Positions 1 to 41,720 of a stretch of 64,000 nt of DNA are shown here, piece by piece; position 1 is the stretch's first letter; every line of letters begins with the position of its first letter. The DNA is from Candidatus Heimdallarchaeum aukensis (lineage in GTDB: Archaea; Asgardarchaeota; Heimdallarchaeia; Heimdallarchaeales; Heimdallarchaeaceae): the NCBI GenBank assembly GCA_021513695.1, contig CP084166.1:288001-352000 (forward strand), in the 5' to 3' direction. The notes below the pieces were generated by a model that saw nothing but the letters and a program-made list of their open reading frames with translations, was not told where the DNA came from and did not search any database. The position numbers and the translations under genes were made by a program.

Positions 1-3000
1 ATATTTGCTCGAAAAGACTTTTTCAGCAGATAATTCTGATCATATTTTTGTTTGGAAAAAATGGAATGGAACTGATATTATCAACGTTTCTTCAAATATC
101 TATATTAAAAATGATGGTTTATATGATTATGACAGTTATGATTTTGATTTAGATGGAAATGTAGATTTAGTTTGTAATTGGGGTTATTATTCAGGTGTAT
201 GGACAAGATTAGAGTTAGAGAATGGGCTTTTTTCTTCAACTGATTATTCATTTTATAACGGGGGCAGATCTATTTTTGTAGAAGATTTGGATAACGATGG
301 TAATCCAAATGTAGCTGTACTATATGCTGTTGATAAAATAAATATTTATAATTATAATCCGAGTATAAATGATTTCCAATTTCAACAACAAATTACTGGT
401 ATTAGTTCATTAAAAGTAATGTATCCTTGGGATTATGACCATAATGGCTATACTGATATTATTGTTGTTTCTCATGAGACTGGAGTTGTTATTTATTCAT
501 ATGAATGGGATAGTTCTTCTTCTTCTTATGTTCAAAAACTATCATATACCATTCCTGAAGCGACAGATAGTCAATGGACTGGTGTTCCTAGGTATTGTGA
601 TCTTCTTGGAGATGGAGAAATTACAATGGTTTTTGATATTGTCCGTAATTCACGTTCTGAAATAGGTTTTATCACTTATGAAAATAATAACTTTGCTTTT
701 AATTCTATTTATAATCATACAGATAGTTCGAAAATTTATTTTACATCTGCTCAAATTGATAATGATCCAGAAAGAGAAATTCTAGTAAATTATGAAAAGA
801 ATGTAGATGAATTCTATACGAAAATATTAGATTTGGAAGCGTTTAATGAGGGTCGGTATTTTGAAACTTTTGACTCTGATGTTTTTCTTTCTAATCCAAA
901 TATGAAATATTCTTGGAGCAGGAGTAAAGATAATGTAGTCGTATCTAATGGATCTTTAAAAATTTTAGCTGATGAAACAAATGATGATTATGCAAAACTA
1001 CAACTTTTTTCTGGAACTAAATCAATACAAATCAGAGCTAGAGTAACTTTAAATGGTGACAAATTCAACTATCCTGAAATAATAATTAAAAATGACAATA
1101 ATGAAATAGTAGCCAATTTGACATTTAGTCAAATAGATGGATGGCAAACACCACAGTTAAGCTATTTAAGTGATTACAGAGGACCAACAATAAAAGGCGT
1201 TTGGTATGATTTAATGATCAACTTTGGTTTTAATTCTCTTACATTTTATACAAAGAAGCCTTATCAAGATTATTGGCGCTATATTGCCAGATTTAATATT
1301 AATGGAAATTTAAACGAATTAATTTTTTATCAACGCAATAATGCAGAAATAGAAATGGATTCTATTGACATTTTTTATAGTTATGACAGTGATAATGATG
1401 GGTTAAGTGATGATAGCGAAACTCTAATCTATCAAACTGATCCTCTAGATCCTGATACTGATGACGATGCTTATACAGATGGAGATGAAATAGAAACAGG
1501 AACAGACCCACTTGATCCTTTAAGTTATCCCAAATCTTACTCCTCAATTTTTTCAGAAAATTTTGAAACAGGAATATTAGATGAAAATAATTGGAGTTTG
1601 TATTCTTCCAATAATGTTGGAGAATGGACTATTGTTAAATATCAAGGAAACTATTGGGTACAGCATCTTTATTCAGGTAGTGTGATAGGACATACTGATC
1701 CTAACATACTTGTTTCATCTCCTCTAAATTTTGGTGACAATTTTACTATTTCATATGTAGTTAGACCTCTCACTTATCAATACGATGAGGTTGGAATTTT
1801 CTTTCTCTGTCCTAATGGTACAGGTTTCAGACTAGGAACTTTTAATGTATATCATGATTTTATAAGAATAGGTGCTTCTAGCTATTATGATTTTGCTTTC
1901 ACAGCTGATTTAGATAAGACTTATTATATGAAAGTTACTTATGTAGATGATACAGTTACCGTTTTTTGTAATGACTCTCAAATTGCACAGGTAAATAATA
2001 TAGACCTCCCATCTGAAGGATCATTAGGATTAAGGAGTAGAGGATATTATGGTCAAGCTTCTCATGCTCTTTATGACAATATTACAATACATAGTACAGC
2101 TTTGTTAAATGAGACCTTTGATTTTGATATCTTTGACACTTATTCAAATTGGATAAGAGATACTACTTCTTTTACTGTTGATACAACCAATAGTTGGTTA
2201 CATAAAGGTACAACAGGTAGTTATAATCATATTGCAAAATATAATAAAACAATACAATTTCCATTCACTATAAATGTAAGAGGAAGATTGGTAAGTGGAG
2301 GATATGATTATACATTTCCTGGATTATATCTCTGTTATCCAAATGGTTCGTCAATGTCAATTGTTTTTAATGGAGGAGGTACAGGAGGAGACTATTGGAC
2401 ATTTTGGGGTCGCAGAGATTCGGACTATGGTCCTCAAGCAGAAAATGTATGGTGGAATATTAAAGTTCTTTTGGATAATGGAACTCAATTTCTCTACTCC
2501 AAAAGTGACACTGATAGTAGTTGGATTTTAATTGCTAAAACAAATCTTTTATTTGAAAGTAATCATATTTATGTAGGTTTTAGTAGTCCTTGGGACGCTG
2601 TTTTTGACATAGATTATATTGAGATAATTTCGAGGAGTACAAATCCAATTGATACTGATTCTGATGGATTACTAGATGAGGATGAGATAAATATTTACGG
2701 TACTAACCCTTCTAATTCTGATACTGATTCTGATGGTATGCCTGACGGTTGGGAGGTTACTAACAGTTTGGACCCCTTAACTGATGATTCTTCTTTAGAC
2801 GCTGATTCTGATGGTTTAACTAATTTAGAAGAATACTCTTCTGGTACTGACCCCAATAATAGTGATTCTGATAATGATGGTTTAACTGATGGTTCAGAGG
2901 TTAATACTTACAATACTGACCCCAATGATTCTGATACTGATTCTGATGGTATGCCTGACGGTTGGGAAGTAAACTACAGTTTGGACCCCTTAACTGATGA

Positions 3001-6000
3001 TTCTTCTTTAGACGCTGATTCTGACAGTTTAACTAATTTAGAAGAGTATCAAAATAACACTGACCCCAATAATAGTGATTCTGATAATGATGGTTTAACT
3101 GATGGTTCAGAGGTTAATACTTACAATACTGACCCCAATAATTCTGATACTGATTCTGATGGTATGCCTGATGGTTGGGAAGTAAACTACAGTTTGGACC
3201 CCTTAACTGATGATTCTTCTTTAGACCCCGATTCTGACAGTTTAACTAATTTAGAAGAGTATCAAAATAACACTGACCCCAATAATAGTGATTCTGATAA
3301 TGATGATTTAACTGATGGTTCAGAGGTTAATACTTACAATACTGACCCCAATAATTCTGATACTGATTCTGATGGTATGCCTGATGGTTGGGAAGTAAAC
3401 TACAGTTTGGACCCCTTAACTGATGATTCTTCTTTAGACGCTGATTCTGATGGTTTAACTAATTTAGAAGAATACTCTTCTGGTACTAACCCTTCTAATT
3501 CTGATACTGATTCTGATGGTATGCCTGATGGTTGGGAAGTAAACTACAGTTTGGACCCCTTAACTGATGATTCTTCTTTAGACCCCGATTCTGACAGTTT
3601 AACTAATTTAGAAGAGTATCAAAATAACACTGACCCCAATAATAGTGATTCTGATAATGATGATTTAACTGATGGTTCAGAGGTTAATACTTACAATACT
3701 GACCCCAATAATTCTGATACTGATTCTGATGGTATGCCTGATGGTTGGGAAGTAAACTACAGTTTGGACCCCTTAACTGATGATTCTTCTTTAGACGCTG
3801 ATTCTGACAGTTTAACTAATTTAGAAGAATACTCTTCTGGTACTAACCCTTCTAATTCTGATACTGATTCTGATGGTATGCCTGATGGTTGGGAGGTTAC
3901 TAACAGTTTGGACCCCTTAACTGATGATTCTTCTTTAGACGCTGATTCTGATGGTTTAACTAATTTAGAAGAATACTCTTCTGGTACTGACCCCAATAAT
4001 AGTGATTCTGATTCTGATGGTATGCCTGACGGTTGGGAAGTAAACTACAGTTTGGACCCCTTAACTGATGATTCTTCTTTAGACGCTGATTCTGATGGTT
4101 TAACTAATTTAGAAGAGTATCAAAATAACACTGACCCCAATAATAGTGATTCTGATAATGATGGTTTAACTGATGGTTCAGAGGTTAATACTTACAATAC
4201 TGACCCCAATGATTCTGATACTGATTCTGATGGTATGCCTGACGGTTGGGAAGTAAACTACAGTTTGGACCCCTTAACTGATGATTCTTCTTTAGACGCT
4301 GATTCTGACAGTTTAACTAATTTAGAAGAGTATCAAAATAACACTGACCCCAATAATTCTGATTCTGATAATGATGGTTTAACTGATGGTTCAGAGGTTA
4401 ATACTTACGGTACTGACCCTAATAATTCTGATTCTGATAATGATGGTTTAACTGATGGTCAAGAGGTTAATACTTACGGTACTGACCCTAATAATTCTGA
4501 TACTGATGGAGACAGTATGCCTGATGATTGGGAAGCAAATAATAATTTAGATCCTTTAATTGATGATTCTTCTTTTGATGCTGATTCTGACGGTTTAACA
4601 AATTTAGAAGAATACTCTTCTGGTACTGACCCCAATAATAGTGATTCTGATAATGATGGTTTAACTGATGGTTCAGAGGTTAATACTTACTCTACAGATC
4701 CATTAGATTCTGACACCGACTCTGATGGTATGCTTGATGGTTGGGAGGTTACTAACAGTTTGGACCCCTTAACTGATGATTCTTCTTTAGACGCTGATTC
4801 TGACAGTTTAACTAATTTAGAAGAGTATCAAAATAACACTGACCCCAATAATAGTGATTCTGATAATGATGGTTTAACTGATGGTTCAGAGGTTAATACT
4901 TACAATACTGACCCCAATGATTCTGATTCTGATAATGATGGTATGCCTGACGGTTGGGAGGTTACTAACAGTTTGGACCCCTTAACTGATGATTCTTCTT
5001 TAGACGCTGATTCTGATGGTTTAACTAATTTAGAAGAATATTCTTCTGGTACTGGCCCTACTAATTCTGACACTGATTCTGATGGTATGCCTGACGGTTG
5101 GGAGGTTACTAACAGTTTGGACCCCTTAACTGATGATTCTTCTTTAGACACTGATTCTGATGGTTTAACTAATTTAGAAGAATACTCTTCTGGTACTGAC
5201 CCCAATAATAGTGATTCTGATTCTGATGGTATGCCTGACGGTTGGGAGGTTACTAACAGTTTGGACCCCTTAACTGATGATTCTTCTTTAGACGCTGATT
5301 CTGACAGTTTAACTAATTTAGAAGAATACTCTTCTGGTACTGACCCTAATGATTCTGACACTGATTCCGATGGCATACCTGATGGTTCAGAGGTTAATAA
5401 TTACTCCACTGATCCTTCTAATAGTGACACTGATTTTGATGGTTTAACTGATGGTTCAGAGGTTCTCTATGGTACTGATCCTTCTAATAATGACACCGAT
5501 TCTGATGGTTTAACTGATGGTTCAGAGGTTAATACTTACTCTACTGACCCTTTGGCTTCTGACACTGATTTTGATGGTATACCTGATGGTTGGGAAGTTA
5601 CTAACGGTTTAGACCCGTTATCTGATGATTCTTCTTTCGACCCCGATAATGACGGTTTAACTAATTTAGAAGAATACTCTTCTGGTACTGACCCCAATGA
5701 TTCTGACACTGATTCCGATGGCATACCTGACGGTTGGGAGGTTACTAACAGTTTAGACCCATTATCTGATGATTCTTCTTTCGACCCCGATAATGACGGT
5801 TTAACTAATTTAGAAGAATACTCTTCTGGTACTGACCCTAATGATAGTGACACTGATTTTGATGGTTTAACTGATGGTTCAGAGGTTAATATTTACTCCA
5901 CTGACCCTAATAATAGTGACACCGATTCTGATGATATGCCTGATGGGTGGGAAGTCAGCAACAATTTGAACCCATTGAAAGACGATTCTGCTTGGGATAT

Positions 6001-7414
6001 TGATTCTGATGGTTTAACTAATTTAGAAGAATACACTTCTGGTACTGACCCTAATGATTCTGACACTGACTCTGATGGTATGTCTGACGGTTGGGAAGTA
6101 AACTACAGTTTGAATCCGTTATCCGATGATTCCTCTTTGGATGCTGATTCTGATGGTTTAACTAATTTAGAAGAATACTCTTCTGGTACTGACCCTAATG
6201 ATTCTGACACTGATAATGACGGTTTAACAGATTATGAAGAAATAGCGATTTATGGTACAAAACCAAATAAAAACGACACCGATGGAGATGGTGTTCCTGA
6301 TGGTGATGAAATACAAAATGGTTCAAACCCAAACAAACCTTCTTACTTACAGTTTCTGATATTATATTCAATAAAAAGGTATACTTTTGAACTGATATTT
6401 GGAATAATTGCAATAATTGGTATCATTGTAGCTACAATATTCTTAAAGAAAAAGAGAAAAACCCAAAAAATCTTAGCATCAAAAAATAGATCAAGACAAA
6501 GTACAATAAAAAGAGCAAAGAAAAAGAATTTATTGTTATCTTTCAGTGATAATTTGGAGATTATAGAACAGGAATGGAAACAGATTAATGATGAGAAATA
6601 TTCTGATAAAACATTGTTTAATACTGATTATTCTAATAAAATAAAAGAAACTTTTGCTAAATTAATAGAGACTACAATAGAATTTAACTATTACTTTACC
6701 AAAGGGACAAAATATTTGTCAAATGTTGAATGGTTAAATATAAAGAAAAGAATAAACAATTTACTTGACAAATTTAGAGACTTTTTACTACAAGAATTAG
6801 AGAAAGTTGATTTTACTAAAAAATTCTCGATAATAAAAAATGAAATAGAAAAGGTAGTTGTTGAAAATTTGCGAAACTTTGACGAAAAAGAGTTATTAAA
6901 ACCATTTAATATATTAAATACTCTAGCTACTATAAAAAATGAAATAGACAGGACTAAAGAGTTCATCGACGAATTTACTTTTTCTAAATTGACCTCTTAC
7001 TGGGGTAATTTGTCTAATCAAATTACAAATATTATTGTTGAAATAGAAAGACAAAAAGAGGAAACAGAAAGAATTATACAAGAAACAAAGGAAATAATGG
7101 AAAACGAGAAATTGAATCAAGAACGATTAGAAATTCTAAACAAAGTAGTTTCTATCTATACACAAATTTCATTATCTAAACTTTCTTCGTTGCTTAAGTT
7201 ACCTTCGATATCTGCTCTAACTTATTGGTTATCAACTCAAAATTTAGATATTGATTATATAATTGTCGACGATGAAATAATCTTTGAAAAACAAAAAGGA
7301 GAAAAAAATGAAAATGATGTTGATTATGATAACGAAGTAACTAATGCGATAGACTCTCTATTAAAACAATTTGATGAATGGGCAAAAAAGGATGAAGGAA
7401 AAAAAATAGATTAA
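1..7414 (+). CDS. Giant surface adhesin-like protein, 5'-partial. The frame is open from the window edge and no signal peptide is visible, so the N-terminus probably lies upstream. Architecture, N- to C-terminal: FG-GAP/VCBS-like motifs, DUF1080/LamG-like beta-sandwich domains, about 60 thrombospondin-type-3 (TSP3) Ca-binding repeats, a single TM helix, and a roughly 330-aa cytoplasmic K/E-rich coiled-coil tail.
   Basis: ORF track 5..7414; codon 2-4 is not a stop, so the frame continues upstream. FG-GAP-like motifs include DLDGNVDLV, DNDGNPNVAV and DHNGYTDIIVV. DUF1080-like C-terminal signatures include GSLGLRSRGYYGQASHALYDNITIHS. There are dozens of DTDSDGMPDGWEV...LTNLEEY units (DxDxDGxxDxxE). 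The TM helix is FELIFGIIAIIGIIVATIFL, followed by KKKRK. The tail is coiled-coil-like (EIERQKEETERIIQETKEIMENEKLNQERLEILNK). Confidence 0.7.
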   Translation, partial: YLLEKTFSADNSDHIFVWKKWNGTDIINVSSNIYIKNDGLYDYDSYDFDLDGNVDLVCNWGYYSGVWTRLELENGLFSSTDYSFYNGGRSIFVEDLDNDGNPNVAVLYAVDKINIYNYNPSINDFQFQQQITGISSLKVMYPWDYDHNGYTDIIVVSHETGVVIYSYEWDSSSSSYVQKLSYTIPEATDSQWTGVPRYCDLLGDGEITMVFDIVRNSRSEIGFITYENNNFAFNSIYNHTDSSKIYFTSAQIDNDPEREILVNYEKNVDEFYTKILDLEAFNEGRYFETFDSDVFLSNPNMKYSWSRSKDNVVVSNGSLKILADETNDDYAKLQLFSGTKSIQIRARVTLNGDKFNYPEIIIKNDNNEIVANLTFSQIDGWQTPQLSYLSDYRGPTIKGVWYDLMINFGFNSLTFYTKKPYQDYWRYIARFNINGNLNELIFYQRNNAEIEMDSIDIFYSYDSDNDGLSDDSETLIYQTDPLDPDTDDDAYTDGDEIETGTDPLDPLSYPKSYSSIFSENFETGILDENNWSLYSSNNVGEWTIVKYQGNYWVQHLYSGSVIGHTDPNILVSSPLNFGDNFTISYVVRPLTYQYDEVGIFFLCPNGTGFRLGTFNVYHDFIRIGASSYYDFAFTADLDKTYYMKVTYVDDTVTVFCNDSQIAQVNNIDLPSEGSLGLRSRGYYGQASHALYDNITIHSTALLNETFDFDIFDTYSNWIRDTTSFTVDTTNSWLHKGTTGSYNHIAKYNKTIQFPFTINVRGRLVSGGYDYTFPGLYLCYPNGSSMSIVFNGGGTGGDYWTFWGRRDSDYGPQAENVWWNIKVLLDNGTQFLYSKSDTDSSWILIAKTNLLFESNHIYVGFSSPWDAVFDIDYIEIISRSTNPIDTDSDGLLDEDEINIYGTNPSNSDTDSDGMPDGWEVTNSLDPLTDDSSLDADSDGLTNLEEYSSGTDPNNSDSDNDGLTDGSEVNTYNTDPNDSDTDSDGMPDGWEVNYSLDPLTDDSSLDADSDSLTNLEEYQNNTDPNNSDSDNDGLTDGSEVNTYNTDPNNSDTDSDGMPDGWEVNYSLDPLTDDSSLDPDSDSLTNLEEYQNNTDPNNSDSDNDDLTDGSEVNTYNTDPNNSDTDSDGMPDGWEVNYSLDPLTDDSSLDADSDGLTNLEEYSSGTNPSNSDTDSDGMPDGWEVNYSLDPLTDDSSLDPDSDSLTNLEEYQNNTDPNNSDSDNDDLTDGSEVNTYNTDPNNSDTDSDGMPDGWEVNYSLDPLTDDSSLDADSDSLTNLEEYSSGTNPSNSDTDSDGMPDGWEVTNSLDPLTDDSSLDADSDGLTNLEEYSSGTDPNNSDSDSDGMPDGWEVNYSLDPLTDDSSLDADSDGLTNLEEYQNNTDPNNSDSDNDGLTDGSEVNTYNTDPNDSDTDSDGMPDGWEVNYSLDPLTDDSSLDADSDSLTNLEEYQNNTDPNNSDSDNDGLTDGSEVNTYGTDPNNSDSDNDGLTDGQEVNTYGTDPNNSDTDGDSMPDDWEANNNLDPLIDDSSFDADSDGLTNLEEYSSGTDPNNSDSDNDGLTDGSEVNTYSTDPLDSDTDSDGMLDGWEVTNSLDPLTDDSSLDADSDSLTNLEEYQNNTDPNNSDSDNDGLTDGSEVNTYNTDPNDSDSDNDGMPDGWEVTNSLDPLTDDSSLDADSDGLTNLEEYSSGTGPTNSDTDSDGMPDGWEVTNSLDPLTDDSSLDTDSDGLTNLEEYSSGTDPNNSDSDSDGMPDGWEVTNSLDPLTDDSSLDADSDSLTNLEEYSSGTDPNDSDTDSDGIPDGSEVNNYSTDPSNSDTDFDGLTDGSEVLYGTDPSNNDTDSDGLTDGSEVNTYSTDPLASDTDFDGIPDGWEVTNGLDPLSDDSSFDPDNDGLTNLEEYSSGTDPNDSDTDSDGIPDGWEVTNSLDPLSDDSSFDPDNDGLTNLEEYSSGTDPNDSDTDFDGLTDGSEVNIYSTDPNNSDTDSDDMPDGWEVSNNLNPLKDDSAWDIDSDGLTNLEEYTSGTDPNDSDTDSDGMSDGWEVNYSLNPLSDDSSLDADSDGLTNLEEYSSGTDPNDSDTDNDGLTDYEEIAIYGTKPNKNDTDGDGVPDGDEIQNGSNPNKPSYLQFLILYSIKRYTFELIFGIIAIIGIIVATIFLKKKRKTQKILASKNRSRQSTIKRAKKKNLLLSFSDNLEIIEQEWKQINDEKYSDKTLFNTDYSNKIKETFAKLIETTIEFNYYFTKGTKYLSNVEWLNIKKRINNLLDKFRDFLLQELEKVDFTKKFSIIKNEIEKVVVENLRNFDEKELLKPFNILNTLATIKNEIDRTKEFIDEFTFSKLTSYWGNLSNQITNIIVEIERQKEETERIIQETKEIMENEKLNQERLEILNKVVSIYTQISLSKLSSLLKLPSISALTYWLSTQNLDIDYIIVDDEIIFEKQKGEKNENDVDYDNEVTNAIDSLLKQFDEWAKKDEGKKID
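2640..6300 (+). repeat. In-frame DNA tandem-repeat array encoding the TSP3-like repeats. It contains two near-identical unit types: 144 nt (48 aa) and 213 nt (71 aa, which is the 144-nt unit plus a 69-nt insert encoding an extra DxDxDG loop). Copies are nearly identical at the 5' end and more diverged at the 3' end.
   Basis: Direct reading: 'gatactgattctgatggtatgcctga(c/t)ggttggga' recurs at 2933, 3146, 3359 and 3503. The spacings are 213, 213 and 144 nt, and this continues to about 6300. Codon-level identity exceeds 95% among the central copies. Confidence 0.85.
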
Positions 7415-9564: not shown

Positions 9565-10536
9565 ATGACTAAATCGACTGTAACAAAGAATGGAAACAAA
9601 GATTCAAAGATATTACCAATTACATTAAAGCTATCTGTTATAAGTTTTAATCGTGTTTCTATCCCATCTCATTTAAGCTTCATTGAAACTGGTGATACAA
9701 TAATAGGAACTATTGAACATGAACTATTGCCAAGTCCTCAATATTTAAACAAGCAATTAAGTTCTAATCGAACTATAACTTTAGGTTTCTTAAAAAAACA
9801 ATTTCCTGGAAAAAAGCTACCTGAAAATATAACTATAACTATTAGAGAAGTGATAAAAAAGAAAGAATCTTTGCCCACAGTAAATGTTTTTGGGTATATA
9901 AGAAATCAAGACAAACTAATTTATTTTGATAAGTCTGAATTTTCTTCCTCTTCTCTAAAAAAATTAAAAGATAAAGCGAAGAATAGTGTTGAAATATTAT
10001 ATACAAAAAAAGATAATATGCCGTTTACTATTCTTCAAGGAGATTATTTTAAGGATTTAGATCTTTGGGTAGTTCCTATTATTTTCTATCTTCAAGGAGA
10101 TTTTGGTTTAGTTCCATCTTGCCTGTTACTGCTTTTTGATAAAGTAAACTTTACTAAATTTTCATCAATACAAGATAAGGCTAATCTTTTGATAGAGCGA
10201 TATGTTACTTGGTTAAGTTTTGAAGAAGATTTGAATGAAGAAACAATCAAACTCTTTGCTTTACAGCTGACTCATATAATAGAAACTAATACTTTACCAG
10301 CTTTCTATGGATTACAAGAAATACTAACAATGGAAGATGAACTTAAAAAAAGAATATTGATTATCTGCATTAAAAACAGGAAAAAAAATGGAATTACTTT
10401 AGAAGAGTTATTTGAACATTTAGAAAGTTACAGTGAAGAAGTAGTTAAAAACAAAGTTGAACAATTAGAAAAAGAGAATCTTCTTTTATTATTGGACAAA
10501 AAAACTGAATCATATGATATTTCTTGGTTGTTGTAG
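9565..10536 (+). CDS. Hypothetical protein, 323 aa. Its C-terminus looks like a winged helix (ITLEELFEHLESYSEEVVKNKVEQLEKENLLLL). It is divergent from xpd.
   Basis: Long ORF at a coding-like position 83 nt from the divergent xpd start. I recognise no known motif. Confidence 0.45.
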   Translation: MTKSTVTKNGNKDSKILPITLKLSVISFNRVSIPSHLSFIETGDTIIGTIEHELLPSPQYLNKQLSSNRTITLGFLKKQFPGKKLPENITITIREVIKKKESLPTVNVFGYIRNQDKLIYFDKSEFSSSSLKKLKDKAKNSVEILYTKKDNMPFTILQGDYFKDLDLWVVPIIFYLQGDFGLVPSCLLLLFDKVNFTKFSSIQDKANLLIERYVTWLSFEEDLNEETIKLFALQLTHIIETNTLPAFYGLQEILTMEDELKKRILIICIKNRKKNGITLEELFEHLESYSEEVVKNKVEQLEKENLLLLLDKKTESYDISWLL

Positions 10537-13832: not shown

Positions 13833-15860
13833 TTGCAAATAGGAGAATTATTTAGATTTAACTATTATTTTGAAAATGATGCTGAAAATAAATTCTTTAA
13901 TAACATTTCTCCTAATATTTTAGAATTTGCAAATTTTATAGCAGAGAATTGGTCCGAAATAATAGAATCAAAACTTTCTCCTATCCATCAGAGTAGAATA
14001 GCATATGTTTTAAAAATATACAACTTCAAGGAAGAATTAGAACAATTATATTCTAAATACAAGAATCTATGGGTTGGGACTTATTATCTATGTTTTCTTA
14101 ACAAAGAAATGCGTTTGAAAGATGCACAAGAATTAATTTATTTTTTAGAATCGACTGTAAGTAATTTAGAGTTTTCTCCTTTTCTTTATTTCGATTATAC
14201 TATTGAAAAGATACAATTATACCTTAATAGCAATGAAATTGCGCTGATTAATTCACTAATACAAGAAGCAGAAACTATAATCAATAATGTAAAAGAGAAA
14301 TATCCTGAAAGGGTTATCGTTTATTATACTTCAATTCTAAACTATATTAAAGGAAAAGTTAACAATAAAGTAGGTAAGATTGTTAAAGCAAAAGATTTTT
14401 TTTCTCAAGCAATTAGTATTTTAGAAGATAAAGGTTTAGAAGATCAGTATTTATTAGGTTGTATTTTTTCAGATTTAGCATCAATTTTGTTTTATTTCGA
14501 TTTAGATGAAGCTGAAATTCTTTATAGAAAAAGTTTCAATATTTTTGAATTATTGGGAATAGAAAAAAACCAAAATATTGAGAGAGCAAATTTAGCTTAT
14601 TTGAGGTTTCATAAAGGATATGTAGATGAAAGTCTGGATATCTTGATTGAATCAATGTATTACTTTGAAAAAAAGTTTGATGCTCAAAATCTATTTAAAA
14701 TATATTTATTCCTTAGTGAGGATTTCTTAATATTGAAACATTATGAGAATTCAAAATCATATTTGATGAAATCTTTACAACTAATGGAACAATTAAATTT
14801 TGAAGAAAGTCAACTTTATATCACTGCTCTAGATTATTATTTAGCAACTAACAATGAAAGAGAAGCTGAGATATACCTTAATTTATTCAAAAATTTTATA
14901 GAAAGAGTTCAAGATTCTGAAGAAGATTCAAAATATGTTTTTGAATACTGTTTAAGAATGGCTCAATTTGAATTATTAAAAGAGAATATTTGGAATGCTG
15001 AACAACTACTAATAACAAAATTTGTTTGTGATACGAACATAAAGAGCAACTATTTTCTTCTTAAAAGAAATTCTATTTTAATTGAAGTATATCTTCTAAA
15101 ATTCAGGATTTCTGATGAAAAAAATACAATTATTAATAACATTGTCCATCTCTTTAAGGATAGTCATAATGTTTTAAAGAGATATTTTAGTCTCTTTCAG
15201 TGGATTTATTATACTACACAAGTTTCTCAATTTTTCATAATTATAGACTTTGAGGAGAAAGCAGATACTTTTTTCTACAAAATCAAGGAATCATTAGCTA
15301 AATTTAATATCTCTGACTCAATTTTACTTCAAATTATTAATAATATTGAAGTTGAACTCTTTACAAAATATGACAAGAAAAGCAATCAAGTTATAAAATT
15401 AGTGAATAGTTATCCTTATGAAGTAGAACATTTAGAACTCACAGAAATTGACTTTTTTGAGATGATACAAACTTTTACTCCTTTAAGAGAAAATTTGCTA
15501 ATTTTACAAATTATCGATTTAACTAAAGAAAAAGTACTTTTTTCTTATAATTTTATTGAAGAAAATGGTTTCCTTTCAAACGAGTTATTAGGAGGAATGG
15601 TTTCTCTAATCCTTAAAATATCAAGAGAGATTCCAATAGAAAAAACTAATACCAATTATAATAACTGCCGATTTGTTTCTAATTCTGGATTCTTTGCTAC
15701 AATTTTTCCAATGGAGAATTATTCTTTTTCTTTAATATCTAATTTTTATACACACGATGGTAAATCACGATTGATAAATTATGCAATGGATGTTCATCCT
15801 ATACTTAAAAAAGAAGGATCAAATGAAACTATTTTTAAGAAGATTCAAGAACATTTTTAA
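13833..15860 (+). CDS. Hypothetical helical-repeat (TPR-like) protein, 675 aa.
   Basis: Long ORF whose amphipathic helical repeats are rich in Y/L/E/K, consistent with a TPR-like alpha-solenoid. No catalytic motif is present. Confidence 0.45.
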   Translation: MQIGELFRFNYYFENDAENKFFNNISPNILEFANFIAENWSEIIESKLSPIHQSRIAYVLKIYNFKEELEQLYSKYKNLWVGTYYLCFLNKEMRLKDAQELIYFLESTVSNLEFSPFLYFDYTIEKIQLYLNSNEIALINSLIQEAETIINNVKEKYPERVIVYYTSILNYIKGKVNNKVGKIVKAKDFFSQAISILEDKGLEDQYLLGCIFSDLASILFYFDLDEAEILYRKSFNIFELLGIEKNQNIERANLAYLRFHKGYVDESLDILIESMYYFEKKFDAQNLFKIYLFLSEDFLILKHYENSKSYLMKSLQLMEQLNFEESQLYITALDYYLATNNEREAEIYLNLFKNFIERVQDSEEDSKYVFEYCLRMAQFELLKENIWNAEQLLITKFVCDTNIKSNYFLLKRNSILIEVYLLKFRISDEKNTIINNIVHLFKDSHNVLKRYFSLFQWIYYTTQVSQFFIIIDFEEKADTFFYKIKESLAKFNISDSILLQIINNIEVELFTKYDKKSNQVIKLVNSYPYEVEHLELTEIDFFEMIQTFTPLRENLLILQIIDLTKEKVLFSYNFIEENGFLSNELLGGMVSLILKISREIPIEKTNTNYNNCRFVSNSGFFATIFPMENYSFSLISNFYTHDGKSRLINYAMDVHPILKKEGSNETIFKKIQEHF

Positions 15861-15882
15861 TTTAAATCGTTTTTTAAAGGAT

Positions 15883-17574
15883 ATGAGTTTAGCAATTGAC
15901 ATTTTGTTAATATTACTACCATTTCTAATAGCTTCTATCTTGCTTGTGAAATTTAAGTGGAAGGCAGACACTACAGGAACACTGATATTTGTATTATTTT
16001 TGGTTCTCTCTATTTTTTACTTTAAAACAAATTGGAAAATAGCCTTTCTTACTTCTATTGCTGGATTAGCAAAGAGTTTTCCCATTAGTTTGATGGTTTT
16101 AACGAGCATCTTGATGATGACCTATATGGAAAAAACAGGAGCTCTTGCAAAAGTAGTTGTTTCATTCAAAAAAATAGGTGGAGGAAATAAAGCTTTTCAG
16201 ATTATGATAATTAATCTCTCATTCGGTACATTTCTTGTTTCAATTGGAGCAACACCAGTAACTATGCTTCCTCCAGTTTTAGCAGCAATGGGTTATAGCG
16301 CCTTTGCAGCTGTAGCTCTACCTTCTATAGGTTATGATCCTCTGTGTACATACGCTTTGCTTGCTGTTCCTGCTGTATTCTTTGCTGAATTTATGAATAT
16401 CCCCTTGACAGAATCTGGATTAGCTTTTAGTTATTATATGCCCTTGGTTTCTTTAGGAATAGCTTTAGGTATGCTTTATCTCGCAGGAGGAAAAGACTTA
16501 CTTTTTAGTAAGGATGGGTTCATTTTTGGGATTGTAGGAGGGTTAACTACTGGTGGTTCAGCCATTCTATCGAATTATTTTGGAATTGTTAAACTTACAG
16601 GAGTCGTTTCAGGTTTAATTACTGCAGTAGTTTTAGTAATTTTAGCTTTAATTAAAAAAGTAAAAATAATTGATAATAGCATAATTACAGAAGAAGAAAA
16701 GAAGATAGATCAATCAATGTCTTTAGTAAAAGCGATGTTTCCATGGATTTTACTAATTCTTTTCGTAGCACTTGTCAACTTTATACCTTTTCTTGCAGAC
16801 TTGTTTCATAACCAATTGCCTTTTACATTTAGAATAGGCGAAATTGTTATTTCAACAAGATTTCTTGAGCAAGCTTACTTTTGGGTACTTGTTGCTACAA
16901 TTTTGTCTATACCTATTTTAGGATGGAAAAAAGAACAACTTCTTCAAACTACCAAGAAATGGATAAAAAGAAGTTATCGTCCTGTTTATGCTGCAGCTAT
17001 TTATTTTTCAGTTGCTTTTCTAATGATTTATTCTGGTTATATCTTTCAAAATAATTCTTGGTACAAAATTGCTGAAAATAACATCATATATATCTTAGCA
17101 ACTACATCTGCAAAAGCTTTTGGAAAATTCTATCCATTAATTGTTCCTTTTATAGGCCTGTTAGGTGGCTTTGTAAGTGGATCTGAAACTTCATCAATAG
17201 CTATGTTCACACTCTTACACAAAACAGCCTCAGAGCAAATTGGATTAATTGCAATTGCTGTAGGAACTGCTAATGGTGTAGGAGGAGGGTTAGCTTCTGT
17301 TCTATCTCCTGCAAAAATACAAAATGCTGCAGCTGTAATAGATGAAGTAGGAATTGAAGGAGAAGTGATTAAAAAAAGTGCACCAATTGCGCTCTTAATG
17401 ACTCTTTCTGTAGCGACTTTAAGCTTATGCTGGGCTAACAGTTATATCTGGTGGAAATGGATAATTGCGTTCAGTATCTATTCTTTAATCATAGTATTTT
17501 CATTCTTACTTATTTTTTATAAAGAAAGGTTAAAATCGCTTCTTTTTACTAAAAAAAATCGTCAAAGAAAATAA
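15883..17574 (+). CDS. L-lactate/glycolate permease (LctP family) membrane transporter. I have trimmed the start from the track's 15781 to the ATG at 15883, which removes an 80-nt overlap with the upstream gene.
   Basis: QIMIINLSFGTFLVSIGATPVTMLPPVLAAMGYSAFAAVALPSIGYDPLCTYALLAVPAVFFAEF aligns with E. coli LldP ([59 protein letters not shown]). The protein is polytopic over its whole length. Confidence 0.6.
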   Translation: MSLAIDILLILLPFLIASILLVKFKWKADTTGTLIFVLFLVLSIFYFKTNWKIAFLTSIAGLAKSFPISLMVLTSILMMTYMEKTGALAKVVVSFKKIGGGNKAFQIMIINLSFGTFLVSIGATPVTMLPPVLAAMGYSAFAAVALPSIGYDPLCTYALLAVPAVFFAEFMNIPLTESGLAFSYYMPLVSLGIALGMLYLAGGKDLLFSKDGFIFGIVGGLTTGGSAILSNYFGIVKLTGVVSGLITAVVLVILALIKKVKIIDNSIITEEEKKIDQSMSLVKAMFPWILLILFVALVNFIPFLADLFHNQLPFTFRIGEIVISTRFLEQAYFWVLVATILSIPILGWKKEQLLQTTKKWIKRSYRPVYAAAIYFSVAFLMIYSGYIFQNNSWYKIAENNIIYILATTSAKAFGKFYPLIVPFIGLLGGFVSGSETSSIAMFTLLHKTASEQIGLIAIAVGTANGVGGGLASVLSPAKIQNAAAVIDEVGIEGEVIKKSAPIALLMTLSVATLSLCWANSYIWWKWIIAFSIYSLIIVFSFLLIFYKERLKSLLFTKKNRQRK

Positions 17575-22720: not shown

Positions 22721-23779
22721 ATGAAACTTAATAAACTAAATAAAAGAGCAGTTTCACCAGTTATTGCAGTTGTTTTATTAATCGCTTTAGTAACTGCAGC
22801 TGTAGCTATAGTATTTTTTGTAGTTTTGCCAATGGTTCAGGGAGATCCTCAACTAGTAGTCTTAAAAATCACTCCAAGTGATACAGATGGAGACAAAAGA
22901 GTTGATACACTGATTATAGATTACCAAAATCTTGGTTCAGGAGAAGCAGTTATTTCAAGTATAATTTTGTACAAGTATAACAATTCAATGGAATGGACAG
23001 TAGATAAAACACTTCCTTATTCTCTAAAATCTAACAAGAAAGACGTAATAACTTTAACTACTTCCGACCCTACCAAACAATTAAAATATCCTGATATCGC
23101 TTATCTTGAAACTACTTACAGCGATGGAATTCTTTTAAGAACAGATATAACAATAGATTCTAGTTTCTCTCCTGTTACTTTAATCTATTCTGAAGACTTC
23201 AACTCATACTCTGACGGATACTCTCCAACTGAATGGACATATTTCCTTGTAGCACAACATAGTCCTACAGGAACACATACTATTAATGATTGGCAAGTAC
23301 AAAGTGGTTCACTCAAAGTAATGGCAAATGATTGTACCTATATTGTTCTTAATTCAAGTACAGGTTATTATTATACTAACGTGAATATGAGCTTTGACCT
23401 TAAAGCAAATGATAACGACGAACTTGGAATCATCTTTAGGTGGCAAATGGACGGAGGAAAAGAAAAATACTACTTAGTAAGCTATACCAGAGATCATGGT
23501 TTATCTGATCACTTTGGAGGAGATAATCCTACAGATGGTTATGTAACTTTATCTTATGTTGAAGACAACACCATTACTGTAATTGATAGTGCTTCATTTA
23601 GCAGAAATGACAACAGTTGGTACAATTATCGATTAGTTACAGATGGTACATCGATAAAGGTATATATCAATGATGTACTCTATATTGACACTACAAGTTC
23701 TCTTTTATCTGGAGGATATATTGGTCTTGTATCAGCTGCAATGAATGGAGCAGAATTTGATAACATTCTTGTCTGGTAA
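22721..23779 (+). CDS. Secreted protein with an archaeal class III (type IV prepilin-like) signal peptide, fused to a DUF1080-type (concanavalin/LamG-like, 3-keto-disaccharide-hydrolase-like) domain.
   Basis: N-terminus: MKLNKLNKRAVSPVIAVVLLIALVTAAVAIVFFVV, matching the KRAVSPVIA prepilin-peptidase motif plus hydrophobic helix of TIGR02537-like proteins. C-terminus: GYIGLVSAAMNGAEFDNILVW, matching the DUF1080 end motif. Confidence 0.6.
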   Translation: MKLNKLNKRAVSPVIAVVLLIALVTAAVAIVFFVVLPMVQGDPQLVVLKITPSDTDGDKRVDTLIIDYQNLGSGEAVISSIILYKYNNSMEWTVDKTLPYSLKSNKKDVITLTTSDPTKQLKYPDIAYLETTYSDGILLRTDITIDSSFSPVTLIYSEDFNSYSDGYSPTEWTYFLVAQHSPTGTHTINDWQVQSGSLKVMANDCTYIVLNSSTGYYYTNVNMSFDLKANDNDELGIIFRWQMDGGKEKYYLVSYTRDHGLSDHFGGDNPTDGYVTLSYVEDNTITVIDSASFSRNDNSWYNYRLVTDGTSIKVYINDVLYIDTTSSLLSGGYIGLVSAAMNGAEFDNILVW

Positions 23780-30844: not shown

Positions 30845-31684
30845 ATGGAAAATGAAGAAACTCTAATAAATGAGCTGAAAAGTGGTTTCGGAACTATAGG
30901 GGTTACTTCTCTTGTAGCTTTTATTTTTAATCTTGCTTTTCTAATTTTTCAGCTAAGCTATTTAAGTAATTATTCACATAATAATTTATCATATAGTAAC
31001 TATTATTTAATATATATTGGCGGTAGTAGTATTTCTTCATTGTTGTTTACTCTGATTTACTTTAGTTTTTTGTACTTAAGCAGAAAGATAGATGAAATAG
31101 AAAAAAGCAAAGAAAACACTATATTTAGAATATCAACAACTATTGCAATTTTGATAATATTCTTTAATATTGGATTCTTTTTAGCTCAATTCTTAGTTGT
31201 AAATGCTGATCAATATTCTGATATTTTTAGTATATCTTACATTATTTTGCAGATATGCTTCATTTTCGTTTATATCTTCTTTGCTCTTTCAATAAGTAAA
31301 ATGAATAGTAAAATGGAAGTTGGAGTAATTATTTGGCCAATTGTAATATATGCAACTATTAACTCAATCGGAGCAATATTTAGGCTAATAATTCAAACTC
31401 TTATTATACTACAACTCTCTTCTTCTGCTTTATTCACCAGCATACTATATTCTTTCTTTAAAAGTATTGATCTAGTTGTTGAATTAATATTTATTATAAC
31501 CATGTTCTTTGTAGCAAACAATGCTCAAATTTCTTTATTACATCAAGTACCACGATATACTTCTTATGCATATTCAGGACCTGTATATAAATCCAAACAA
31601 TCAACTAATTTTTGTCCTTTTTGTGGAACAGAAAATTCTCCTGATTCAAAATTTTGTATAAACTGTGGAAAAAGGATAGATTAG
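30845..31684 (+). CDS. Polytopic membrane protein with a C-terminal cytoplasmic zinc ribbon. This is paralog 1 of a tandem pair.
   Basis: Six to seven TM helices. C-terminal CPFCGTENSPDSKFCINCGKRID is a CxxC...CxxC zinc ribbon. Confidence 0.55.
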   Translation: MENEETLINELKSGFGTIGVTSLVAFIFNLAFLIFQLSYLSNYSHNNLSYSNYYLIYIGGSSISSLLFTLIYFSFLYLSRKIDEIEKSKENTIFRISTTIAILIIFFNIGFFLAQFLVVNADQYSDIFSISYIILQICFIFVYIFFALSISKMNSKMEVGVIIWPIVIYATINSIGAIFRLIIQTLIILQLSSSALFTSILYSFFKSIDLVVELIFIITMFFVANNAQISLLHQVPRYTSYAYSGPVYKSKQSTNFCPFCGTENSPDSKFCINCGKRID

Positions 31685-31962
31685 ATTCTCTACCATTTAT
31701 CTTTTTATTTTGCTATAGAAATCCAAACATCAAAAAAATTTTACTAGTTGATTTATAGGTTATTTTTTAATCCTCACAAAAAAGAATGATCTCTGAAAAT
31801 TTTTTGCTTAAATTTTCACTCGAACTTAAAAATTATCTACACTGAAGTTGAAATAAATTATTAATTAAAAAGTATCTTTAGTTTAATTTTCTATAGTTTT
31901 ATTAAGAAGCATGAAAAAATATATTGAAAGCTTTATATATTTGGATTTGTAGCCTTATATTT

Positions 31963-32808
31963 ATGAAAAATGAAGAACTTCTAATTAATGATTTGAAGCT
32001 AGGTTTCAGAAAAATAGGATTTGTTTCAATCTTAACTCTGGCTTTTAGTCTTGCTTTTGTAATTATTCAACTTAACTATGTAAGTAAAATGTCACATGGT
32101 ATAAGTCTTTATTTAGTATATCTAGTAGGGAATATTCTTTCTTTATTGTTTTTAGCTCTAATTTATTTTGCTTTTCTATACTTAAGTGGAAAGATAAATA
32201 AAATAGAGAAAAGTAAAGAAAATACTATATTTAGCACAGTAACGATAATTGCAGTAGTGTTAATATTCTTCGATATTGGATTATTTTTAGGTCAATTTTT
32301 ACTTAGCTTTTCCAATATGCAATTTTCTAATATATTATCCATTATTTATGTTATTTTTTACATTATTTTGTTACTAAGTTCTTTTTTTGTATATATCTTC
32401 TTTCCTCTTTCAATAAATAAAATGAATAGTAAAATGGAAATTGGAGTAATTACCTGGCCAATTGTTATATATGCAATTGTTAATTCAATTGGAGTAATGA
32501 TAAGAATAATAGCACAAGTTTTCATTGTTTTACAAATTACTCCTATGGCTGTATTTACAAGTATTCTCTATTCTATCTTTCAATTTATAAATCTGGCTGT
32601 TGAATTAATGTTTATTATAAGCATGTTTTTTGTAGCTAACAATGCTCAAATTTCTTCATTACATCAAGTACCACAATATGTTCCTTCTGCATATTCAGGG
32701 CCTGTAGATAAATCTAAACAACCAACATTTTGTCCTTTTTGTGGAGCACAAAATTCTCCTGATTCAAAGTTTTGTATAAACTGTGGAAAGAAGATAGATT
32801 CGAATTAG
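31963..32808 (+). CDS. Polytopic membrane protein with a C-terminal zinc ribbon. This is paralog 2 of the tandem pair. I placed the start at the ATG (MKNEELLINDL), which aligns with the paralog 1 N-terminus; the track started at the TTG at 31924.
   Basis: MKNEELLINDLKLGF versus MENEETLINELKSGF. The two are collinear throughout. Zinc ribbon: CPFCGAQNSPDSKFCINCGKKIDSN. Confidence 0.55.
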   Translation: MKNEELLINDLKLGFRKIGFVSILTLAFSLAFVIIQLNYVSKMSHGISLYLVYLVGNILSLLFLALIYFAFLYLSGKINKIEKSKENTIFSTVTIIAVVLIFFDIGLFLGQFLLSFSNMQFSNILSIIYVIFYIILLLSSFFVYIFFPLSINKMNSKMEIGVITWPIVIYAIVNSIGVMIRIIAQVFIVLQITPMAVFTSILYSIFQFINLAVELMFIISMFFVANNAQISSLHQVPQYVPSAYSGPVDKSKQPTFCPFCGAQNSPDSKFCINCGKKIDSN

Positions 32809-39086: not shown

Positions 39087-39097
39087 GAGGAAAAAAA

Positions 39098-41259: not shown

Positions 41260-41720
41260 TGATTTATATGAACAAAACACTTATTCTTTCCCTTGGTAGT
41301 AGAGTAATGTCAGATGACGCTATTGGACATGTCATTGTTCAAAACCTTCAACAAAAGAAAGTTAAAGCTGATATTATTCAATTAGATACTGATATTTTCA
41401 AATTAAACTTATTTTTTGATAATCATAAAAGAATAATAATCATCGACGCTATTCAAAGCAGTGATTCACCAGGGACAGTTCATGTAATTCCTTTTCATGA
41501 TTTTGAAAAGGAGATCGAAGGAAAAATTAGAGGAAGTCATTTTTTGGACATGAAAGAAGGTTTAGAACTTCTGCGTATAGCTAACTCCAAAATTGCTGAA
41601 GCTGAAATATTTTTAGTAGGTATAGTTATTAAAAAAATTGAACTAGGAACGGATTTAACTCCAGTTTTATTAAAAAAAATTGATGAAGTTTGTAATATTA
41701 TATCTGATCTTATAATATAG
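41259..41720 (+). CDS. hycI: Hydrogenase maturation endopeptidase (HycI/HybD family).
   Basis: LGSRVMSDDAIGHVIV matches the GNxxxxDDGxG motif. The 153 aa length fits. It sits immediately after the large subunit. Confidence 0.7.
   Translation: MIYMNKTLILSLGSRVMSDDAIGHVIVQNLQQKKVKADIIQLDTDIFKLNLFFDNHKRIIIIDAIQSSDSPGTVHVIPFHDFEKEIEGKIRGSHFLDMKEGLELLRIANSKIAEAEIFLVGIVIKKIELGTDLTPVLLKKIDEVCNIISDLII

Follow-up and report, generated by a model that had tools for sequence, protein, structure and literature searches.

A very large surface protein of a Heimdallarchaeum-type archaeon with a TSP3 stalk and a predicted PCI-type winged helix in its cytoplasmic tail

Our analysis of a 64,000-nucleotide stretch of archaeal DNA (hereafter the window) indicates that the gene at its 5' edge encodes a real, very large type I membrane protein on the surface of an Asgard archaeon of the Heimdallarchaeum type, probably 'Ca. 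Heimdallarchaeum aukensis', and that the interesting, eukaryote-flavoured part of this protein is its tail and not its ectodomain. The predicted structure of the tail shows fold similarity to the PCI-type winged helix, and the tail defines a rare, undescribed family, being a portable C-terminal domain. The reading which we favour, and which we hold to be probable, is that of a type I surface protein in which an exchangeable head and a TSP3 stalk are joined to a PCI-like tail that docks cytoplasmic partners.

The gene (positions 2-7414, forward strand, as are all features below) is a single open reading frame, uninterrupted over 7.4 kb and truncated at its 5' end by the edge of the window. The first-pass annotation had reported more than 2,469 amino acid residues in a frame open at the edge, and 2,470 codons are indeed visible before the stop. 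That annotation had also suggested a low-GC, Asgard-like archaeon, which was borne out, the closest genome to the window being that of 'Ca. Heimdallarchaeum endolithica' PR6. In the alignment with the PR6 ortholog, the first visible residue pairs with residue 173, suggesting that about 172 N-terminal residues are absent from the window copy and that the full protein would have roughly 2,640 residues. All the motifs quoted previously were located, namely DLDGNVDLV (aa 49), DNDGNPNVAV (aa 97), DHNGYTDIIVV (aa 146), GLRSRGYYGQASHALYDNITIHS (aa 676) and the transmembrane segment (aa 2129-2148). The reading frame, motifs, repeats, domains and topology are not attributable to chance in a genome of 30% GC. 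Neither tRNA genes nor Rfam matches were found in the 64-kb window.

So long a frame could also be an artefact of assembly or annotation (collapsed or expanded repeats, or fused genes) or a decaying pseudogene. In keeping with this, a short-read Logan contig from the same organism (SRR15988954_191), which carries the neighbouring helicase, stops inside the 3' end of the gene; the relatives L011, L005 and P0002 are split by frame changes; and repeats in the DNA are as much as 96% identical. However, the frame is unbroken across its whole length, in the PR6 genome, which was closed independently, a single reading frame holds head, stalk, transmembrane helix and tail in identical order, and the non-repetitive parts on both flanks of the repeat array are conserved, and we consider an artefact extremely unlikely. 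The complete PR6 ortholog also supplied the upstream sequence that the first-pass annotation had wished to see: its N-terminus is signal-like, and a fusion artefact was rejected on this ground.

The order of modules described earlier (propeller-like head, beta-sandwich domains, calcium-binding repeat array, one transmembrane helix and a long cytoplasmic tail) was retained, except that the tail is not a plain coiled coil. The head (aa 1-290, positions 2-871, +) is a beta-propeller of the FG-GAP/VCBS type, 87% identical to that of PR6, with blades bearing DxDxDG-type calcium motifs at aa 47, 95 and 144. The FG-GAP/VCBS blades proposed previously were supported by Pfam, in which the 290-aa segment matched FG-GAP_3 (PF13517) in four stretches with 39.8 bits, above the gathering cutoff of 26.9. 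The relative L011 matches multiple beta-propeller families; the visible window head is without its approximately 172 N-terminal residues.

Three beta domains follow the propeller. The first (aa 291-458, positions 872-1375, +) is 76% identical to PR6, has no Pfam match and is a distant paralog of the third (25% identity, E = 5e-5). A short linker with two TSP3 units (aa 459-504, positions 1376-1513, +; TSP3_bac match at aa 462-484) separates it from the second (aa 505-700, positions 1514-2101, +), which is succeeded by the third (aa 701-878, positions 2102-2635, +); the second and third domains are both missing from the PR6 ortholog. The DUF1080 domain assigned here by the first-pass annotation fell below threshold: domain 2 matched PF06439 (3-keto-disaccharide hydrolase, formerly DUF1080) with 16.1 bits against a cutoff of 26.8, the match being confined to profile positions 128-186 of 187, that is, the C-terminal third, and the domain had no similarity to the window's own true PF06439 protein. 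Domain 2 is collinear with a Laminin_G_3 domain of L011 (88.5 bits), although it is the TSP3 linker that drives the pairwise alignment. Because L011 has a true Laminin_G_3 at the equivalent position, a ConA-like or LamG-type sandwich of unproven family is plausible for domain 2. The Pfam search gave no direct ConA-like or Laminin_G_3 match for the beta domains of the window, and no homologs of domains 2 and 3 were found in a word-indexed database. Weak matches of the three domains to proteasome beta chains in a PDB sequence search were regarded as spurious.

The largest part of the protein is an array of 52 TSP3 units of the bacterial type (aa 879-2112, positions 2636-6337, +). TSP3_bac (PF18884) matched 38 stretches (E = 7e-114, 371 bits against a cutoff of 25), and a scan for D.D.D[GDS] gave 56 sites, of which 52 lie in the main array (aa 884-2105) and two each in the propeller and the linker. 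The TSP3-type repeats noted earlier are present, with a count of 54 units (52 in the array and two in the linker) instead of about 60, although the unit number may be imprecise. The units of the array are of three types, A (26 aa), B (22 aa) and C (23 aa), ordered as AB and ABC super-repeats, in agreement with the 144-bp and 213-bp periods of the DNA. With 23% Asp, a net charge of -354 and 41 N-x-S/T sequons, the array presumably forms an extended stalk; calcium binding by the protein is predicted by analogy with the families concerned.

These outer modules bear on the earlier description of the protein as a 'eukaryote-like', 'integrin-like' adhesin, on which view it would be homologous or functionally equivalent to an adhesion receptor of eukaryotes (of the integrin alpha or thrombospondin type) and would perform outside-in signalling through a coiled-coil tail. 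Such a receptor would fit the FG-GAP-type motifs and the FG-GAP_3 match, the calcium-binding-type DxDxDG units, the type I layout with a long tail, and the Asgard host. Against this reading, FG-GAP/VCBS propellers are widespread in prokaryotes. A full-length Pfam scan at E <= 1 returned the model named 'Bacterial TSP3 repeat' and Binary_toxB only, the eukaryotic TSP_3, thrombospondin C-terminal and integrin leg families being absent, and the named proteins that come closest to the repeats are adhesins of bacteria. Likewise, no GFFKR-type motif stands behind the transmembrane helix, and the PCI-like folded tail is unrelated to integrin tails. Integrin alpha shares with the window protein the FG-GAP-type calcium-binding blades and the type I topology, but the window protein has no match to the Thigh or Calf families and no known beta partner (no candidate beta subunit was seen in the window), and the integrin alpha tail is short whereas the tail here has 322 residues and is predicted to be folded. 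Integrin homology was rejected on the leg families, the GFFKR motif and the tail, and we give the eukaryotic receptor reading almost no credence. The outer part consists of ordinary prokaryotic adhesin modules and is not citable as an ancestor of integrin or thrombospondin. Our search of the literature on Asgard integrin-like or surface proteins found nothing relevant.

Bacterial TSP3 adhesins, such as Myxococcus CglD (gliding) and MtsD (cell-cell cohesion) and TSP3_bac proteins generally, likewise combine long acidic DxDxDG arrays and binding heads on a secreted or surface protein. CglD was the sole NCBIfam match of the window ectodomain (16.9 bits against a cutoff of 400), and P0005, a relative with a different head, matched MtsD with 43.8 bits against a cutoff of 800; scores so far under the family cutoffs indicate similarity at the level of the repeats only. 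The bacterial proteins of the CglD and MtsD type are lipoproteins or outer-membrane-associated, and we know of no bacterial TSP3 adhesin that has a transmembrane helix and a PCI-like cytoplasmic domain of 300 residues.

The stalk leads to the single transmembrane helix FELIFGIIAIIGIIVATIFL (aa 2129-2148, positions 6386-6445, +; Kyte-Doolittle 2.74), behind which the sequence KKKRKTQK begins a stretch of 30 residues with a net charge of +14. The hydrophobic signal at the N-terminus of the PR6 ortholog and the positive-inside rule after the helix give a type I topology, which agrees with the single transmembrane helix and inside tail proposed earlier; for the window protein itself, a signal sequence is expected from the ortholog. 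In the remaining surface proteins of the window, the cytoplasmic part is a short, basic stub of just 6-9 residues.

The cytoplasmic tail has 322 residues (aa 2149-2470; K 14%, E 11%) and is helical. The first-pass annotation had described it as a K/E-rich coiled coil; it is instead predicted to fold into a conserved domain that contains a winged helix of the PCI type. AlphaFold, which gave an unusable model with two sequences as input (pLDDT 62), returned a folded helical domain with an alignment of 18 sequences (model md7afb3e35363, mean pLDDT 84, pTM 0.67), in line with the structural check proposed earlier. In this model, tail residues 1-220 (positions 6446-7105, +) would form a long juxtamembrane helix and then a helical bundle, in which the motif FIDEFTFSKLTSYW is conserved. 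Residues 221-281 (positions 7106-7288, +) are predicted to form the PCI-type winged helix, in the order H-beta-H-H-beta-beta. An acidic linker of low confidence (pLDDT <50 at residues 284-294) then precedes a conserved amphipathic helix (residues 292-316) and a basic end, ...NAIDSLLKQFDEWAKKDEGKKID (positions 7289-7411, +). In the 18-sequence full-tail alignment (A3), all sequences share I302, L305 and L306, and W261 and K319 are conserved to >=90%. The terminal helix and the GKK end are nearly invariant even in very divergent members.

The class of the winged helix was suggested by both structure and profiles. With the tail model, almost all of the top approximately 45 Foldseek matches were PCI subunits of the proteasome lid, CSN, eIF3 and Csn12 (best E = 2.5e-3). 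Among 17 family members, 8 matched Pfam PCI, 6 matched CSN8/PSMD8/eIF3K and 5 matched Paf67, with P0013 exceeding the PCI gathering cutoff. The tail of the window protein itself scores 16.8 bits for PCI, under the Pfam cutoff, its PDB profile matches have E of about 0.15-0.3, and its global TM-scores against PCI subunits are low (0.15-0.25). Judged against PCI (PF01399 and related), the tail has a PCI-type winged-helix subdomain, and its helical part is not demonstrably a PCI-type solenoid. Compared with the PCI subunits CSN7, Rpn12/PSMD8, eIF3a and eIF3c, the domain of the window protein differs in being membrane-tethered behind a giant ectodomain, in addition to its sub-threshold sequence score and low TM-scores. 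To our knowledge, a multi-subunit PCI/MPN complex has yet to be described from archaea.

An exhaustive HMMER scan of 1.84 billion proteins gave only 17 clusters with the tail, always at the extreme C-terminus. Its length is 292-322 residues in eight full-length members (P0014 has 242, and P0011 is cut short). A metagenome scan with a tighter tail alignment gave only the known P0001 fragment, and a word-indexed database gave one fragment for the tail and nothing for the profile of its end-module. Neither tail nor end-module has a family in NCBIfam or PADLOC, on which basis a role in a known defence system was rejected.

While the tail is constant, the heads vary among members, being either a propeller (with LamG-like domains) or a NosD beta-helix. 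Beta_helix/NosD heads stand on five long members, and TSP3 arrays are present in four of these five but not in P0014. The PR6 head is 87% identical to that of the window, but its stalk base shares only 38% identity with the window copy as against 89% with P0002, and its tail only 54% as against 74%. These comparisons show that heads have been swapped between family members, probably by recombination within the repeat array. Note that between the two species the tail diverges faster than the head (54% versus 87%). Neither the shuffling of head and tail through a TSP3 array nor this new portable C-terminal domain was found described in the literature searched.

The end-module also terminates soluble LRR proteins. 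Three soluble proteins bear it in locus L004, where several end-module proteins and a JAB/MPN gene lie together, and four consecutive genes end in it in L014; the terminal motif (helix and basic end) is common to the soluble proteins of both loci. EAP30-family (ESCRT-II-like) genes occur in the vicinity of family members in both L002 and L004, the two EAP30 proteins being homologous (E = 3e-9), and a ThiF-JAB-Ubl-E2 (E1-JAB-Ubl-E2) operon lies directly upstream of a family member in L004 and L005. The best match of its E2 is UFC1. The 87-residue Ubl of L004 has no UFM1 match at the sequence level, and we call it 'Ufm1-like' because of the UFC1-like E2 and its -VG end. The EAP30 association covers two lineages and the Ubl association one, and both were noticed post hoc; a functional link of the tail family to these genes may exist. 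No ESCRT or ubiquitin-type genes were seen among the 40 ORFs scanned in the window, and the downstream synteny between the window and PR6 is not conserved.

In the docking mechanism that we favour, the propeller head and the three beta-sandwich domains would be the likely ligand- or partner-binding part, contacting an external surface, a polymer or a partner cell. The highly acidic stalk, calcium-loaded by family analogy, would set the reach of the head. Inside the cell, the winged-helix and terminal-helix module would dock the surface protein to cytoplasmic partners, which may be EAP30/ESCRT-II-like proteins with tandem winged helices or soluble LRR proteins that share the module, and the outcome could be receptor clustering, sorting or turnover. 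The analysis shows the architecture, the signals of topology, the family, the similarity of fold and the mosaic of heads and tails, while we infer the calcium binding, the adhesion and every partner interaction. The locus offers a concrete and testable candidate for a link between the Asgard cell surface and the eukaryote-like ESCRT, ubiquitin-like modifiers and small GTPase/LRR proteins inside the cell. If docking is true, these would be the first receptor-like Asgard proteins with a defined intracellular coupling domain; if it is wrong, the head/tail shuffling and the new C-terminal domain still stand as descriptions.

A simpler possibility is a passive structural protein (an envelope fibre, matrix component or adhesin), the tail of which only anchors it or serves its lateral oligomerisation within the membrane, with coincidental neighbourhoods and no coupling to ESCRT, ubiquitin-like or signalling systems. 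The ectodomain modules are all standard prokaryotic surface modules, PCI winged helices are oligomerisation devices (PMC10936438), the window has no ESCRT or Ubl neighbours, and the tail evolves fast between sister species, all of which would suit a passive role. However, the end-module is also found at the end of LRR and other soluble proteins, for which a membrane anchor is superfluous; a short basic stub suffices for other surface proteins of this genome; very divergent members retain the terminal helix and GKK end almost unchanged; and two distant lineages have an EAP30 gene in the neighbourhood. We regard the passive role as rather unlikely.

Beyond docking, the end-module could be an archaeal PCI-type assembly domain that would bring surface receptors and soluble LRR proteins together at the membrane, in one assembly with ESCRT-II-like proteins, a Ufm1-like conjugation system and a JAB/MPN protease. 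This more far-reaching idea is in our view improbable. If it is true, the eukaryotic PCI/MPN complexes (proteasome lid, CSN and eIF3), or else the DDRGK1-UFL1 membrane platform, would have a forerunner in prokaryotes, by which cell-surface events would be coupled to ubiquitin-like modification and membrane remodelling. In a variant of the idea, the C-terminal helix (D-x-x-L-L-x-x-F-x-x-W, then basic) would act like the MIM1 of ESCRT-III and recruit a MIT-domain ATPase.

Makarova et al. (2024, PMC10936438) described membrane-associated Ser/Thr kinases from archaeal ESCRT loci, which end in a PCI-like winged helix and are genomically linked to ESCRT-type winged-helix proteins, as well as Asgard ESCRT-linked proteins with HTH/PCI domains, and proposed oligomerisation or interaction between winged helices for the PCI-like domain. 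Compared by description only, these kinases resemble the window protein in being archaeal and membrane-associated with a small C-terminal PCI-like winged helix, but they have an N-terminal transmembrane segment and Ig-like repeats, whereas the window protein, which is not an enzyme, has a type I topology and a TSP3 stalk. DDRGK1/UFBP1 is a membrane-anchored adaptor of the UFM1 ligase with a PCI-like winged helix, an N-terminal anchor and no ectodomain. DDRGK1 orthology was rejected, since the tail had no DDRGK match in Pfam and no DDRGK1 or UFL1 chain was among its PDB profile and Foldseek matches. By analogy only, DDRGK1 and the window protein share a membrane-tethered cytosolic helical region with a PCI-like winged helix; the family member of one lineage directly follows the E1-JAB-Ubl-E2 operon with its UFC1-like E2.

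The giant gene is a single open frame at window 2-7414 (+) of 2,470 codons that runs past the 5' edge, and all of the motifs quoted in the first-pass annotation were found in the translation where it had placed them. The repeat region has a local GC content of 35-38%, compared with about 30% for the whole window, and Tandem Repeats Finder detected nested DNA periods of 69, 78, 144, 213, 357 and 495 bp with copies up to 96% identical. At the protein level the array consists of 52 units, a count to be taken as approximate because the giant gene is interrupted in the short-read assembly of this organism. The units are of three kinds, A (DTDSDGMPDGWEV..LDPLTDDSSL; 26 aa), B (DADSDGLTNLEEY..GTDPNNS; 22 aa) and C (DSDNDGLTDGSEVNTYNTDPNNS; 23 aa), which are ordered into AB and ABC super-repeats, and a short linker at aa 459-504 contains two more TSP3 units. 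Matches to the Pfam repeat family TSP3_bac (371 bits, 38 stretches) confirmed the proposed type of the repeats, although not their proposed number (about 60, against 52 + 2 units). Antisense ORFs of 91-158 aa inside the giant gene (window 4900-5376, 5536-5853 and 6691-6966, all -) sit in or beside the array and most likely reflect only its composition rather than being genes.

The propeller head matched Pfam FG-GAP_3 above the cutoff (39.8 vs 26.9 bits), as had been read from its motifs. The DUF1080 assignment failed: PF06439 (the former DUF1080) scored only 16 bits and matched only in the last third of the model. Among the three beta domains between the head and the main TSP3 array, domains 1 and 3 are distantly paralogous to each other (25% identity, E 5e-5) and domain 2 is separate; the latter has no similarity to the genuine PF06439 protein of the window (22721-23779, 38 bits). 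In L011, a related giant gene, an FG-GAP_3 propeller (72 bits) is followed by a short TSP3 linker and then by Laminin_G_3 (88.5 bits) at the spot equivalent to domain 2, and therefore domain 2 is plausibly a ConA-like beta-sandwich. The ectodomain is a prokaryotic-type adhesin. The initial observation as a whole was confirmed, except that the eukaryote-like integrin/thrombospondin label and the DUF1080 call were unsupported. The genuine PF06439 protein (+, 352 aa) has an archaeal type-IV-pilin-like N-terminus (weak Pilin_N/DUF7289 matches) and may be a pilin-like protein that displays a lectin or hydrolase domain at the surface.

Consistent with the single-TM claim, the giant protein has a single segment of strong hydrophobicity (aa 2126-2150, Kyte-Doolittle 2.74). 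This segment, the net charge of +14 over the 30 residues that follow it, the net charge of -354 and 41 N-x-S/T sequons of the repeat array, and the N-terminal start of the complete ortholog from Ca. Heimdallarchaeum endolithica PR6 (MLSDAKISFLLILIILPSFTIMY) indicate, by sequence rules, a type I protein with its tail in the cytoplasm.

The tail had been regarded as a coiled coil. A word-indexed search with it returned only one fragment, and when 1.84 billion cluster representatives were scanned exhaustively with HMMER, it was found in 17 proteins, in all of which the match reaches the last residue. Among the long members, five combine a signal or anchor with a NosD-type right-handed beta-helix head, one TM and the tail; four of them also have a TSP3 array, which P0014 lacks. 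The tail is 292-322 aa long in the eight full-length members (242 aa in P0014), and its most conserved part is the last ~100 residues (...ISLxKLxxLLxF....WL....IEGxEVIF....AIDxLLxQFxEWExxGKGKK), beyond which several short family proteins contain little. The family contigs are low in GC (29-37%) and Heimdallarchaeum-like.

Pfam PCI matched eight of the 17 members (best E 1.8e-6), CSN8/PSMD8/eIF3K six and Paf67/eIF3l five, and the 106-aa member P0013 exceeded the PCI gathering score (28 vs 22 bits). The top matches of the PDB profile search were a proteasome PCI protein, eIF3a and eIF3c, at E-values of only 0.15-0.3. The AlphaFold model of the tail, made from an 18-sequence alignment (pLDDT 84, pTM 0.67), has helices to residue 219; a canonical winged helix (H-beta-H-H-beta-beta, residues 221-281) follows, and an acidic linker modelled with low confidence separates it from a terminal helix (292-316). 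Its best ~45 Foldseek matches were almost exclusively PCI subunits (proteasome lid, CSN, eIF3 and Csn12-Thp3), with modest E-values (best 2.5e-3) and low TM-scores. From these family matches and the structural comparison, we conclude that the modelled winged helix is of PCI type. The tail is thus a conserved PCI-like cytoplasmic domain rather than just a coiled coil, and defines a rare, undescribed family; no description of it was found in the literature.

The C-terminal end-module of the tail (the winged helix plus the conserved terminal helix) is portable. At locus L004 it occurs on three soluble proteins, two of LRR type and one of 288 aa that terminates in IDELLNQFQKWEVEGEGKKK. At L014 1856-7495 (+), the products of four genes in a row, three of them LRR proteins and the other ScoMcrA_N-like, all terminate in the same winged helix and EAEIDALLxKYKxWExxQVGK; a PIN-domain gene lies upstream, and the contig GC of 37% is above that of the other loci. 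At L005, a second membrane member directly follows the member P0009. Two genes downstream of the giant gene, a 323-aa product without a Pfam match (window 9565-10536, +) has a C-terminus (…GITLEELFEHLESYSEEVVKNKVEQLEKENLLLLLD…) that reads like a winged helix-turn-helix, and the end-module HMM did not match it.

The N-terminal 880 aa of the giant protein matched one locus among species-representative genomes, CP084167.1 of PR6 (80% identity). PR6 and its sister species, Ca. H. aukensis PM71, were both described by Wu et al. 2022 (PMC8813620), whose main text contains none of the words adhesin, integrin, thrombospondin and 'surface protein'; the window most likely comes from this sister species or a close relative of it. 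The PR6 ortholog (2,162 aa) lacks domains 2 and 3 and keeps the parts in the same order within one ORF, which excludes the fusion artefact considered in the first-pass annotation. The heads of the two proteins are 87% identical, but the stalk base and the tail are only 38% and 54% identical, whereas those of PR6 share 89% and 74% identity with P0002, which represents the 3' part of a gene with a beta-helix head from another organism. It follows that recombination has brought together different heads and tails, with the repetitive array between them as the obvious, though presumed, substrate. At L011 1619-7736, L005 11714-16341 and L008 311-3597, a frame change or a short overlap, located in the repeat region or close to it, divides the family gene into two ORFs; repeat misassembly, pseudogene formation or genuine phase variation could each account for these splits.

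The tail HMM found no second copy in the window. Three further predicted surface proteins there have a signal and a C-terminal TM with a stub of just 6-9 basic residues behind it, apparently the way in which this genome usually anchors such proteins, and the long tail of the giant protein is exceptional among them. They are a purple acid phosphatase with fn3 and CARDB (33613-35244, -), a 1,023-aa CARDB/DUF11 protein (51229-54300, -) and a 466-aa Beta_helix/NosD protein with a 9-residue stub (35598-36998, -). The last shares 28% identity with the head of P0014, lacks the tail, and could be related to the exchangeable beta-helix heads or have served as their donor.

L004 2955-5746 and L005 5047-7850, close relatives counted as one lineage, encode on the same strand a ThiF E1, a JAB/MPN protein, an 87-aa protein ending in ...NRGIVG and an E2-like protein, with a family member directly downstream. 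The best four PDB matches of the E2-like protein were all UFC1 (E 0.01-0.08), and the 87-aa Ubl had no sequence-level match to UFM1; the operon has the appearance of a conjugation cassette of Ufm1/UFC1 type that includes a JAB protease. Köstlbacher et al. 2026 (PMC12962969) reported Ufm1 homologues in nine Asgard clades, in a main text from which the words DDRGK, UFL1, UFC1, PCI and signalosome are absent. EAP30/Vps36-family (ESCRT-II-like, tandem winged-helix) genes are near members in two distant lineages: next to the member at L004 (9760-10794, +; only two PDB matches, both SNF8/Vps22) and 1.7 kb upstream of the PR6 ortholog (L002 6944-7759, -; 44 bits). Their products are homologous (E 3e-9), and both genes stand outside any obvious larger ESCRT cluster. 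No ESCRT/Ubl-type gene was found among the 40 ORFs scanned in the window, beyond which the upstream side of the giant gene lies, or in the available sequence of L003 and L006-L011. The association with EAP30 and Ubl genes, which we noticed post hoc, is no more than suggestive.

From family knowledge, the TSP3 units would bind Ca and form an extended stalk, and the propeller and beta-sandwich head would bind an external ligand or partner. The gene context suggests that the tail may dock to cytoplasmic proteins, either carriers of the same module or EAP30-like winged-helix proteins, which could lead to clustering, sorting or turnover. The tail is more interesting than first supposed, to a degree that depends on whether this cytoplasmic coupling is real. 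Speculatively, the spacing and position of the terminal helix may be similar to those of an ESCRT-III MIM1-type motif. A parallel of the tail with DDRGK1/UFBP1 would be equally speculative; no DDRGK1 or UFL1 chains appeared in the PDB profile or Foldseek searches. Makarova et al. 2024 (PMC10936438) described membrane-associated kinases of archaeal ESCRT loci that carry a PCI-like winged helix at the C-terminus, as well as HTH/PCI-domain proteins linked to ESCRT in Asgard archaea, and proposed oligomerisation or wH-wH contacts.

The window neighbours of the giant gene are archaeal (XPD-type helicase, geranylgeranyl reductase and NiFe hydrogenase). A ~670-aa TPR protein is encoded no more than a few kb from a family member in the window (13833-17574, +), L007 (1-3126) and L008 (11273-13270), and adjoins a lactate permease in the first two. 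L007 proteins are 66-90% identical to those of the window, and this proximity may be plain synteny among close relatives. Two neighbouring ~280-290-aa proteins (30845-31684 and 31924-32808, both +), for which a C-terminal zinc ribbon is the only family assignment, are probably paralogs. The compact NiFe hydrogenase cluster (37165-41720, +) comprises a Fer4_22 protein, a FAD/NAD-binding DHODB-type subunit, the Oxidored_q6 small subunit, the NiFeSe large subunit and a 153-aa ORF, a layout that resembles a cytoplasmic group-3-type enzyme.
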